DNA of 64,000 nucleotides. Source: Alphaproteobacteria bacterium 16-39-46. Its GTDB lineage: Bacteria; Pseudomonadota; Alphaproteobacteria; 16-39-46. A program made the position numbers. Of the stretch, positions 42,101-45,100 are shown piece after piece (within the stretch, counting starts at the first letter, position 1; each line of letters begins with the position of its first letter). The stretch lies in NCBI GenBank assembly GCA_002257235.1, contig NCGZ01000001.1, forward strand, positions 6,230 to 70,229, written 5' to 3'.

Positions 42101-45100
42101 AAAGCCATATGGTAAAAGATTATTTAGCAAGATCTTTGACATTTTTTCGGGATGCTCGAGCCCAGTGCGAAGAAGTCTTTGCTGAATGTACAAAAAAAAA
42201 CTGGACAAAGATTGGGCTTGTTGGGTCAGGAGATTTAGCAGACATCGCAACCCTTGTTGCTCAAGGTACAAATATAGAAACTGAGACAATTTCTGTAAAT
42301 AACTCTCTTAAAACATACGACGCTATTCTCATCACAGATGTTATGAATCCCCAAGATACCTATGATGCCCTTAAAAAAAATATTGATTCTCACCAAATTT
42401 TAACGTTGAGACTCTTGCATGTTTCAAGGGAGATACCATGATTCAATGGTGCGTTGCTCATACCCAATCTTTAAAAGAAACCCTTGCTCAACAGCATTTA
42501 CGTGACCAGGGATTTGACGTTTATCTCCCACGATTCAAAAAACTTCGACGTCATGCGCGTAAAACTGATGAGGTTCTTGTCCCTCTCTTCCCAAGATACA
42601 TTTTTGTAGGAATAGACCCAGAGATTTCTCCCTGGCGGAAAATCAATGGAACACGTGGCATCTCTTATTTATTGATGGCCAGCGATAATTGTCCTGCTCT
42701 TGTCTCCACCTCTGTCATTGGCGATTTAAGAGCACAAGAGGTGAGTGACGGAATTCTTCCTGTCAGCAGTCTTGTTTCTTTTCTAAAAGGTGATAAAGTT
42801 CGAATTTTAGAAGGTTCCCTTAAAGATCAAACTGTTGTATTTGAAAAATTAGACGATAAAGGGCGTGTTCAACTCTTGCTTAATCTACTGGGCAAAGATG
42901 TTAAATTTTCACTTTCGTCCTATGCGATTGAAGCCGCATAAAAGAACTTCTTAAGATATTTCTCTTAAATAAAAACAAGAGAAAAATTAAATAATATTAA
43001 CCCCGGGTCTTGGTGCTCATTGCACCCGGACTGCGGCAGCTATGGTGAAGTTTTAGGTCCATGTCAAAAATCAAAATTTCTGTTGTTGGGTGCGGTTATT
43101 GGGGTAAAAACCTCGTTCGAAATTTTTCTGAACTTAGTGTCTTAGCCTCTGTGTGTGACACAAAAGAAGAATTAGCTCGTTCTGCAGCACAAACGTATAA
43201 GGTCCCAAGCCTTAGTTTAGAGCAGGTTCTTAAAAGTGATGTTGATGGTATCGTCATTGCTGCTCCCGCAATTCAACACTATGAACTTGCTCTAAAAGCC
43301 CTTAACGCAGGCAAACATGTTTTTGTTGAAAAGCCTCTCTCTTTAAACGTAAACGAAGCCAAAATTCTTTGTGATCTTTCTCTCCACCTTAACCAACATT
43401 TGATGGTTGGACATTTACTTCAATATCATCCCGCTTTTTTAGAGTTAAAAAAAATTATTTCAAAAGGAATTTTGGGGCAGCTTCAATACATTTACTCGAA
43501 TCGTTTAAATTTAGGGAAATTTCGTACCGAAGAAAATATCCTTTGGAGCTTTGCCCCTCATGATATTTCAATGATTTTAGGTCTTGCAGGAGAATTGCCC
43601 GAGACTGTTTATGCCACGGGTGCTTGTTACCTTAATCCTCACATTCATGATGTGACAACGACCCATTTATCCTTCAAAAATGGCCTTCAATCTCATATTT
43701 TTGTATCTTGGCTTCACCCGTACAAAGAACAAAAACTCGTTGTTGTCGGCGATCGAGGCATGGCTGTTTTTGATGATGGTTTAAGCTGGGATGAAAAATT
43801 AAAGCTCTATCCTCATCAAGTATCTTGGATTGATGGATTTCCTCATCCAAAAAAAGCAGATGTTATCCATATTCCCTTAGAGCCTTCTGAACCTTTAAAA
43901 CTCGAATGTAAACATTTTATTGATTCTATTGAAAACAATAAAAAACCCATAACAGATGGGCTTGAGGGCTTACATGTTTTACAAGTTTTAGAAGCTGCAC
44001 AGCAATCACTTCACTCAAAAAAAACGGTCTTTTTAGAAAAAGAAAACGCTCCTTACTTTGTTCATGATACTGCAATTGTTGATGAGGGATGCCAAATTGG
44101 CAAAGGAACTAAAATTTGGAATCTTTCTCATATTCTTAAGGGAACAATAATTGGAGAAGATTGTATCATTGGACAAAACGTTATGATCGGCCCAGATGTT
44201 ATTGTAGGAAATCGGTGTAAAATTCAAAACAATGTTAGTCTTTATAAGGGCGTGACCCTAGAAGATGGTGTATTTTGTGGCCCTTCATGCGTATTTACGA
44301 ACGTTCACAATCCAAGAGCTGAAATTGAACGCAAAGATGAGTTTCGGCCTACCTATGTAGAACGCGGCGTAACGATCGGAGCAAATGCAACAATTATTTG
44401 TGGCCATCGATTAGGAGCCTATAGTTTGGTTGGCGCTGGTGCAGTTATTACAAAAGACGTCAAACCCCATGCCGTAATGGCTGGAAACCCTGCCAGGCAA
44501 ATTGGGTGGGTCAGCCATGCAGGGGAAAAATTGGAAGATGATTTAGTGTGCTCACGTGAAAGACGTTCCTATTGTCTAAATGAATTCGGAGATTTGATTG
44601 AGATAAATCCCGTTACAAAATATCAAAGAAAATCTTGAATTTAAAAAAAACTATTAAAACAGCCTCTCTGAAGGCGCATTAAGTTATTGGATCGCGAAAT
44701 TAATTGATATTAGCATAAGAGGAAAAAATGGATTTAAGAGGTAAAAAACTGACTGTGGTAGGAGGCGCTGGTCTTATTGGATCTCACACAGTAGATGAGC
44801 TCCTTAAAGAAGATATAAAAGAGCTTATTATTTATGATAATTTTGTACGTGGTACGCAAGATAATCTCGAAGCCGCATTGAAAGATTCGCGTGTCCGCAT
44901 TTTTGAAATTGGCGGCGACATTTGCCAAACAGATATTTTAAATGAAGCCTTAAAAGGAGCCGATGGGGTTTTTCATTTTGCTGCGCTTTGGCTTTTGCAA
45001 TGTCATGATTTTCCAAGATCTGCATTTCACGTAAATGTTGAGGGAACTTTTAATGTTCTTGAAGCTTGTGTAAATCAAGGCGTTAAGAGACTTGTTTATT

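Follow-up and report, generated by a model that had tools for sequence, protein, structure and literature searches.

The recruitment of RfaH, a specialised paralogue of NusG, to its ops element is understood in detail for E. coli only (Wang et al. 2020). In that system G2, the C3:G8 pair, the loop G4-G5-T6-A7 and the Y-G step at ops positions 11-12 are important, with nearly all of them needed, and the crystal structure shows K10, H20, R23, Q24 and R73 of the protein in contact with ops and T6 held in a pocket of H20, R23, Q24 and R73 (Zuber 2018). A second NusG paralogue, UpxY of Bacteroides, works at opsX, whose class-1 sites unite three features: a DNA hairpin in the non-template strand, a nascent-RNA pause hairpin that extends to -12 to -9, and an escape duplex at -11 to -9; the pause hairpin gives UpxY time to bind non-template and upstream DNA, and the escape duplex then aids release (Saba et al. 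2024, PMC11685472). Alphaproteobacteria contribute about 18% of the catalogued RfaH homologues, one cluster being linked to a regulator of helix-turn-helix (HTH) type, and the literature that we found on RfaH homologues names no recruitment site for the alphaproteobacterial ones. Here we analyse a 64,000-nt stretch of Alphaproteobacteria bacterium 16-39-46 (contig NCGZ01000001.1; "the window" throughout), in which a gene for an RfaH-like protein is followed by a hairpin joined to an ops-like core and then by a long polysaccharide operon. Drawing on what can be observed directly, namely conservation, linkage, structure statistics, homology and an association between a protein residue and a DNA base, we propose that this 45-nt element is probably where the RfaH-like factor, whose gene lies just upstream, is loaded.

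The factor gene (42438-42941, + strand, 167 aa) encodes, as judged from its sequence, an RfaH-like specialised NusG paralogue that is neither a general NusG nor a strict RfaH equivalog, because profile ranking, profile cut-offs and a search of the PDB all place it there. Among NCBIfam models the protein scored highest with RfaH (TIGR01955, 105.3 bits), followed by UpxY (62), LoaP (48) and NusG (45), and in every case it stayed below the cut-off: 105.3 versus 144.5 bits for TIGR01955 and 82.4 versus 124 for NF006534 (the two RfaH equivalog models), 61.7 versus 100 for UpxY NF033644, 48.5 versus 125 for LoaP NF033641, and 45 versus 135.7 for NusG TIGR00922. The best PDB match was E. coli RfaH (E = 4e-19, residues 4-161), with NusG at 1e-4, and the top fold match of an AlphaFold2 (AF2) model computed from an alignment of 69 homologues was fully recruited RfaH (8phk_P); autoinhibited RfaH matched the same model through its NGN domain only. 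In the PDB, fold and profile tests the protein is thus nearer to RfaH than to housekeeping NusG in both domains, as a preliminary description of this DNA had held against a generic NusG. That description had also assigned an NGN domain and a KOW domain of RfaH type. The NGN domain was recognised by Pfam (E = 6e-15), whereas no Pfam match was obtained for KOW, and what can be said of the second domain is that the C-terminus aligns with E. coli RfaH up to residue 161. Homologues are numerous (56-90% identity) and include proteins named after Holospora, two of which (P0024 and P0097) are not placed on contigs and so lie outside the locus comparison below. At least 6,428 protein clusters came up in a profile search, some of them named from Pseudolabrys and Xanthobacteraceae, and a very large alphaproteobacterial family of this kind fits both the published 18% share and the HTH-associated cluster.

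The gene is not monocistronic. Its start overlaps the stop of a MarR-like regulator gene by 4 nt (ATGA), and it lies directly ahead of a co-directional polysaccharide operon, its presumed target, from which it is separated by 119 nt of noncoding DNA (42942-43060), the next gene starting at 43061. The preliminary description was exact on the factor gene and the 119-nt stretch, and two hexamers that it names (43003-43008 and 43024-43029) and a 15-nt motif, GCGGCAGCTATGGTG (43033-43047), lie within this intergenic stretch.

To define the element we used a covariance model (R1), built from 45 sequences of one class and then used to realign all elements, since a MAFFT alignment of all 99 elements misplaced a one-base indel in the 5' arm and was not used for the model. 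R1 matched positions 43003-43049 of the + strand over its full length (54.1 bits, E ~1e-13) and found no other copy in the 64-kb window. The consensus of the module reads GCR-GTCT(N)GGTG-loop-CACCCRGRC-TGCGGYAGC-(N)TG, with a conserved stem in which 5'-GCR-GTCT-(N)-GGTG pairs with CACC-C-RGRC-TGC-3'. In the window this stem-loop occupies 43005-43032 (+ strand), where GGGTCTTGGTGC (5' arm, 43005-43016) pairs with GCACCCGGACT (3' arm, 43022-43032) around a loop at 43017-43021; it is also the minimum-free-energy fold, at -19.9 kcal/mol, within the -19 to -24 kcal/mol found across related elements. The ops-like core, TGCGGCAGC-TA-TGGTG (43032-43047, + strand), differs from E. coli ops, GGCGGTAGCGTG, by T at position 1, C at position 6 and a single additional base ahead of TG, and the 15-nt motif noted above is the 3' half of the 45-nt module. 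The hexamers CCGGGT and ACCCGG, which had been taken for the functional stem, occur only in the window and an 87%-identical relative (L002/L003) and are absent from L004, L005, L008, L012 and L015; their pairing register and that of the conserved stem are mutually exclusive, so this part of the preliminary description falls away.

Within the window alone the motif is unremarkable. The 15-mer occurs once, where 0.39 occurrences are expected at up to three mismatches, which is not significant by itself, and canonical ops at up to two mismatches is under-represented (8 matches versus 16 expected), none of them in this leader. Since window statistics show no enrichment, the significance of the element rests on comparison across loci.

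We therefore examined contigs of ten homologue lineages and one more distant lineage, 11 in all, chosen through their RfaH-like proteins. In 9 of the 11 the intergenic region carried the element, in the form GTCT(N)GGTG-loop-CACCCRGRCTGCGGYAGC, beginning 23-90 nt past the stop codon, and the homologues that bear it in the same place share 36-87% protein identity with the window protein. Every one of these loci with enough upstream sequence had a MarR-like gene overlapping the RfaH-like gene by the same 4 nt, and the first downstream genes, though variable, were always of polysaccharide type. Metagenomes were scanned with a pattern covering the whole hairpin and core, the 5' arm included, which gave at least 120 matches. 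Among the 120 matches listed, 80 have an upstream RfaH-like gene, 36-68% identical to the window protein, and in most of these 80 loci a MarR-like gene precedes it; the distance from the end of the RfaH-like gene to the element is 27-93 nt, except in L065 (166 nt) and in L156, where the gene lies on the opposite strand some 3 kb away. About 19 of the other listed matches were evident chance hits, with long non-pairing "loops" in GC-rich coding sequence. In total we count 99 homologous elements in 98 loci, or about 100 distinct metagenomic loci. Two other scans added nothing: a protein-based scan of genome contigs returned only a 31%-identical Marivita gene (L001) that lacks the element, and an 18-nt pattern of 3' arm and core gave 32 matches in viral contigs, all of them chance occurrences in coding DNA.

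Across 99 distinct sequences the core reads TGCGG(T 85 / C 14)AGC, followed in about two thirds by N-T-G, and the clade of the window has (T/A)A-T-G at this point instead, so that it combines C6 with one extra base. The majority form, TGCGGTAGC(G/T)TG, and E. coli ops, GGCGGTAGCGTG, agree in 11 of 12 positions; the bases G2, G4, G5 and A7 and the C3:G8 pair do not vary, and ops positions 11-12 hold a Y-G step. At the level of DNA, the leader of the presumed target operon hence contains an ops element (GGCGGTAGnnTG), as consensus TGCGGTAGC(G/T)TG and in the window as TGCGGCAGC-TA-TG. The preliminary description had seen in the window motif a divergent ops variant with C6 and one additional base; the comparison bears this out, in that the element is strongly conserved and most lineages carry the canonical GCGGTAGC(N)TG. 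The earlier interpretation was essentially right, and the comparison supports an element that is part of a widespread module and not a one-off variant.

The pairing is conserved as well. In a covariance-model alignment of 98 distinct sequences, 89.5% of stem cells held standard pairs, against at most 46% when the partners were slid, and compensatory changes at three stem pairs amounted to 9 cells, a number reached by 0 of 500 shuffles (the 45-sequence seed behaved similarly). In L169, a locus reached through its protein and lying outside the search pattern, GUUU...GAAC replaces GUCU...GGAC, a clean compensatory change. Loop length varies between 3 and 16 nt. The excess of G.U over A.C pairs, 65 to 7, points to a structure of the sense strand and not to a symmetric duplex site, and the stem-loop at 43005-43032 would act as a pause hairpin in the nascent RNA.

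The same observations bear on a different explanation, according to which the inverted repeat is a duplex operator through which the MarR-like protein represses the operon promoter, the likeness to ops being secondary. The element does lie between the regulator genes and the operon, a MarR-like gene is nearly always beside it and is the sole regulator directly upstream in L077/L104 and L156/L165, and both arms are strongly conserved in sequence, like protein-binding sites. Yet a dimer of fixed geometry would not tolerate arms whose spacing ranges from 3 to more than 16 nt; the arms are asymmetric, with a conserved unpaired C and the G.U excess just described, and the adjoining GCGGTAGC(N)TG, which is non-palindromic and equals ops, is at least as conserved as the arms. 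Moreover, three elements (L074, L085 and L167) have neither regulator gene within 3-7.7 kb upstream. An operator of this kind seems unlikely to us, although it is the main alternative and could coexist with a loading site for the RfaH-like factor.

Elements that stand apart from a factor gene also speak to the reach of the proposed loading site. Those of L074, L085 and L167 are genuine, with neither regulator gene in the 3-7.7 kb of sequence available upstream, and in L077/L104 and L156/L165 the element directly follows the MarR-like gene with no RfaH-like gene between. Elements without a nearby RfaH-like gene directly precede genes for sugar dehydrogenase, asparagine-synthase-like, aminotransferase, CapD-like or Wzt proteins. 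The presence of the element at more than one operon in relatives is the regulon signature that the preliminary description had looked for; copies before other polysaccharide operons were found in relatives, but the 64-kb window holds a single one. This distribution suggests that in relatives the factor may act in trans, beyond its target in cis. Two further candidates for elements without a factor gene, L090 and L132, were rejected, the open reading frame upstream in L132 being the C-terminal fragment (~40 aa) of a disrupted RfaH-like gene; in L090 a short nearby reading frame looks transposase-like by eye.

Several of these relatives have individual features. The MarR-only intervals lie at 345-1078 in L077, 7272-8005 in L104 and 5258-6034 in L156; the first downstream gene of L077/L104 encodes an AAA-ATPase/PDDEXK_9 protein, and a second pair of MarR-like and RfaH-like genes is present in L156, 3 kb distant and in opposite orientation. 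In L095 (423-466 and 1551-1594; L098 is alike) the entire intergenic region with its element is duplicated around an inserted gene of ~300 aa, and the second copy carries substitutions (GATTGCGGTAGT). In the rearranged locus of L006 (CP060236.1, 3520-4820) and L007, 1.3 kb of noncoding DNA replaces the element; that of L006 includes a tRNA-Ser gene (4417-4509, - strand) and a possible element remnant, 'tgcggtaaaaatcaactatggtg', near 3775. On the Xanthobacteraceae-type contig of L169 an H-NS-like gene (PF00816, 1129-1602) lies ~8 kb upstream of the cassette; in E. coli RfaH works against silencing by H-NS, which lends this neighbour interest.

We aligned 76 RfaH-like proteins from these loci with E. 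coli RfaH and tabulated the ops-contact residues. The window protein keeps H20, Q24 and R73 and has Q for K10 and D for R23. The family falls into two clades: the low-GC clade of the window keeps R73 and has lost R23, and the larger clade keeps R23 and has V, F or I at position 73. Arg23 was present at 51 of 62 loci with T6 and at none of the 14 with C6, where D, E, Q or A is found instead. Counted as clusters at 70% identity, Arg versus non-Arg is 18/10 for T6 and 0/12 for C6 (Fisher p ~1e-4, kinship ignored). Furthermore, two independent C6 lineages within the Arg clade both have Gln23, and L005 and L101, whose proteins are at least 70% identical, pair D23 with C6 and S23 with T6, respectively. 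C6 arose in AT-rich genomes, opposite to the compositional bias. The association is what one would expect if the NGN domain read base 6 directly, and it points to such a contact. This would be chemically sensible, as a carboxylate or amide could face cytosine's amino group and a guanidinium thymine's carbonyl. The same alignment shows W66, the equivalent of T66 in E. coli, to be invariant in 76 of 76 proteins, where it replaces the enterobacterial gate-loop motif H65-T66-T67-T68; R138 is likewise invariant, and its salt-bridge partner in E. coli, E48, is not conserved.

It is here that the proposed loading site parts from an explanation modelled on LoaP, in which the factor binds the RNA hairpin itself and the GCGGYAGC tail is only a pause signal. 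The hairpin is indeed kept in sequence as well as in shape, AF2 predicts a free beta-barrel KOW domain when given the close-homologue alignment of the window clade, and Saba et al. link charge features of the KOW domain to RNA-hairpin binding in some UpxY proteins. But the LoaP profile fits the window protein less well than that of RfaH (48 versus 105 bits), the bases of the ops loop are invariant, more than a pause signal needs, and the residue-23/base-6 association points to an NGN domain that reads this loop, so that recognition of the RNA hairpin is in our view quite unlikely. It may be that upstream DNA is read out as a duplex, which would keep the 3' arm nearly invariant and constrain the 5' arm to stay complementary to it.

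A third explanation makes the element an mRNA-stabilising 5' stem-loop, or a part of the promoter or its discriminator, and has the factor recruited in cis, co-translationally and independently of any site, a mode put forward for RfaH homologues termed "monomorphic" (Tabilo-Agurto et al. 2026 preprint, PMC13015549). In a position-specific profile of the sequence before the hairpin, positions -16 to -5 are AT-rich and a -35 signal is absent; the AT-rich patch is compatible with, and hints at, a -10 box, with which the transcript would begin right at the hairpin. The cis location of the gene likewise fits the monomorphic, ops-independent class, as does the AF2 model from 69 close homologues, in which the NGN domain is confident and the C-terminal domain (CTD) all-beta (pLDDT 65-79). 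A second run on 80 sequences from both clades did not reproduce that CTD: it came out with low confidence (pLDDT 31-50), as two strands and a helix over the LLLNLL segment, and the beta-CTD prediction is consequently not robust to a broader alignment. Neither the near-perfect identity of the tail with ops and its well-placed Y-G step, nor the residue/base association, nor the presence of elements at operons that have no factor gene close by would be explained. Site-independent recruitment thus appears very unlikely, and both it and recognition of the RNA hairpin are less likely because of the ops identity and the residue/base association.

For the proposed loading site we infer transcription of the element, a pause, binding and anti-termination, in the following order. 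RNA polymerase would transcribe the start of the operon and the nascent RNA would fold into the conserved hairpin, whereupon the polymerase would pause 11-12 nt past the hairpin, at the T/G step after GCGGYAGC. If the pause falls at ops position 11, as assumed here, the core of the stem would end at -12 (position 0) and its outer pairs, GCR/UGC (positions 1-3), would lie at -11 to -9. In the open bubble the non-template strand would display a small ops hairpin closed by the C3:G8 pair, and base 6 would be flipped out; through its NGN domain the RfaH-like protein would bind this hairpin and lock onto the polymerase, and the factor would then displace NusG and let the polymerase read through the ~20-kb operon. 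In the window clade a C6 site would be met by Asp in place of Arg at the residue that reads base 6, across a spacer one base longer. The factor would be made beside its main target and, in some relatives, could serve further copies of the element elsewhere.

A number of observations weigh against this mechanism. The NCBIfam RfaH score of the window protein is below the cut-off, and of the five ops-contact residues compared the protein retains no more than three, so that recognition must differ in detail from that in E. coli. The additional base in the window clade puts the pause register, G(-10)/Y(-1)G(+1), out by one position. A promoter scan of the + strand of the leader found no sigma-70-like site, and in 2 of the 11 protein-anchored lineages the gene pair has no element (L006/L007, and L011, whose contig ends 283 nt past the stop codon). 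As to the statistics, most stem positions were fixed by the search pattern, so that their invariance is partly a matter of ascertainment, and the covariation, though real, is modest; the residue-23/base-6 rule is not strict, T6 being found also with E, A, N, S, H, K and Q, and its statistics ignore phylogeny.

The leader also contains an AT-rich hairpin directly after the stop codon of the factor gene (TTTCTCTT-loop-AAGAGAAA, 42959-42984, + strand), which appears in the predicted fold of the intergenic region and may be a weak terminator or a processing site of the regulator transcript. Hairpins after the stop codon are found at other loci too, with sequences unrelated to that of 42959-42984. 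A terminator scan of the intergenic region called none, and we rejected a reading of the conserved hairpin itself as terminator or attenuator, as no U-run follows it and none was called there.

The MarR-like gene upstream (41845-42441, + strand) encodes a winged-helix regulator (Pfam HTH_24, 2e-4; MarR_2, 2e-3) whose sole NCBIfam match is MarR_EPS (TIGR04176), at 62 bits and below the cut-off of 88. Its real start is probably the ATG at 41863, which would give 192 aa as in its homologues. The last ~85 residues are without a Pfam match and may form an unrecognised sensor domain.

Downstream, the presumed target operon (43061-63165, + strand) spans ~20 kb and, by reading-frame layout and Pfam, comprises 19 tightly packed co-directional genes. 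Their products include a GFO/IDH-hexapeptide fusion, an epimerase, a DegT aminotransferase, two asparagine-synthase-like proteins and a FemAB-like protein, together with an acetyltransferase, a methyltransferase, two GT1 glycosyltransferases and a Wzx-type flippase. Within the operon, positions 48000-58000 have a G+C content of 30-33%, against 38-43% around them, which suggests a swapped-in, serotype-specific block. In the window clade (window 43041-43063; L002, L005, L008 and L012) the first operon gene starts 19-22 nt past the AGC of the element and has no clear Shine-Dalgarno sequence before it, which recalls the RfaH-dependent recruitment of ribosomes to mRNAs that lack a ribosome-binding site.

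Searches of the literature, both by the motif sequence and for RfaH of Rhizobiales or of Holospora, gave nothing relevant, and we found no description of the element. The alphaproteobacterial hairpin-ops module thus appears to be an undescribed variant of the RfaH/ops system, with a function that we propose from sequence comparison. It offers a concrete and testable candidate site for a very large protein family, and the covariance model could be used to map the regulon in any alphaproteobacterial genome. Natural T6 and C6 variants that go with Arg or with Asp, Glu or Gln would make it possible to test directly how non-template DNA is read by NusG paralogues and, if the recognition code holds true, would amount to a simple base-6/residue-23 code for such a paralogue. 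Should the family prove to be of the "monomorphic" type, a strictly conserved ops-like site would qualify the proposal of ops-independence. With the element, the real 5' end of an O-antigen or capsule-type operon could also be recognised in little-studied bacteria, some of them related to endosymbionts (Holospora is among the homologues). A more ambitious synthesis can be offered only tentatively, as a possibility that may well not hold in all its parts: that a MarR-like gene, an RfaH-like gene and a 45-nt hairpin-ops element fusing enterobacterial ops with a pause hairpin and escape duplex of Bacteroides style form an undescribed and widespread alphaproteobacterial cassette, with a base-6/residue-23 code (Arg with T; Asp, Glu or Gln with C) and a cis-encoded, possibly non-autoinhibited RfaH homologue that still needs a specific site.

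Set beside described systems, the module has partial counterparts in several. LoaP of Firmicutes and Actinobacteria is also a cis-encoded NusG paralogue for a long biosynthetic operon and needs a leader hairpin; it binds RNA, whereas in the window family the ops core and the association between NGN residue and base argue for read-out of DNA. The monomorphic beta-RfaH proteins likewise lie in cis beside a lipopolysaccharide or other polysaccharide operon and have a model with a beta-barrel CTD. They are, however, gammaproteobacterial (Idiomarina group) and proposed to be ops-independent, while the window family has a strictly conserved ops-type element, also at other operons. PrfaH of IncX plasmids (PMC11880322) is another cis-encoded RfaH-like activator with an ops-like site near its own gene; it belongs to a plasmid conjugation system, and its site is downstream of the prfaH promoter. 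Its structure (9ik0) is among the fold matches of the AF2 model, weakly so (E 5e-4, 19% identity).

UpxY resembles the window factor as a NusG paralogue encoded at, and dedicated to, a polysaccharide locus, and class-1 opsX has the same geometry as the alphaproteobacterial stem if the pause is at ops position 11, a position that we assume. The arrangements differ in that upxY is the first gene of its operon, downstream of its ops, whereas the window factor gene lies upstream of the element, and in that the partner of UpxY is the anti-factor UpxZ and that of the window protein a MarR-like regulator. The ops core of the window family is of enterobacterial type, unlike that of Bacteroides opsX; the pause, a mapped one there, is a predicted one here.

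In E. coli the JUMPstart leader places a small hairpin just upstream of ops, cUGGu/gCCAg, which ends 2 nt before ops position 1. The window leader too has a hairpin immediately upstream of ops ahead of a polysaccharide operon, with a stem of different sequence, length and spacing: it has 9-13 bp in window-type elements versus 5 bp in E. coli, shows a conserved sequence, and either adjoins ops positions 1-3 or overlaps them. The Rfam JUMPstart model (RF01707, gathering threshold 35 bits) gave no match in 42900-43100 at E <= 10, none at gathering across the window, and none at E <= 1 in 14 related loci, and other Rfam families likewise had no match at gathering in the window, their permissive snoRNA and miRNA matches being noise. 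As a positive control, RF01707 scored 60 bits on the E. coli galF-rfbB region, and the 39-nt E. coli JUMPstart sequence was present upstream of rfbB in 5,426 of 5,426 complete E. coli genomes; conversely, R1 does not match the E. coli JUMPstart site. By the available models JUMPstart and the window element share a common architecture and are not the same family.

The likeness is closest to RfaH and ops themselves. The gene settings differ, the window factor gene being cis-encoded and co-operonic with a MarR-like gene whereas rfaH of E. coli is a monocistronic gene whose product works in trans, and so do details of recognition: relative to E. coli RfaH, K10 and R23 are replaced in the window clade and R73 in the other clade, an invariant W66 takes the place of the HTT motif, ops position 1 is T in window-type elements, unlike in E. 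coli, and the window clade adds C6 and one spacer base. Nevertheless, E. coli RfaH is the closest relative of the window protein by sequence, profile and fold, both systems serve long polysaccharide operons, and the core of E. coli ops, GCGGTAGC(N)TG, is common to most lineages of the element family.

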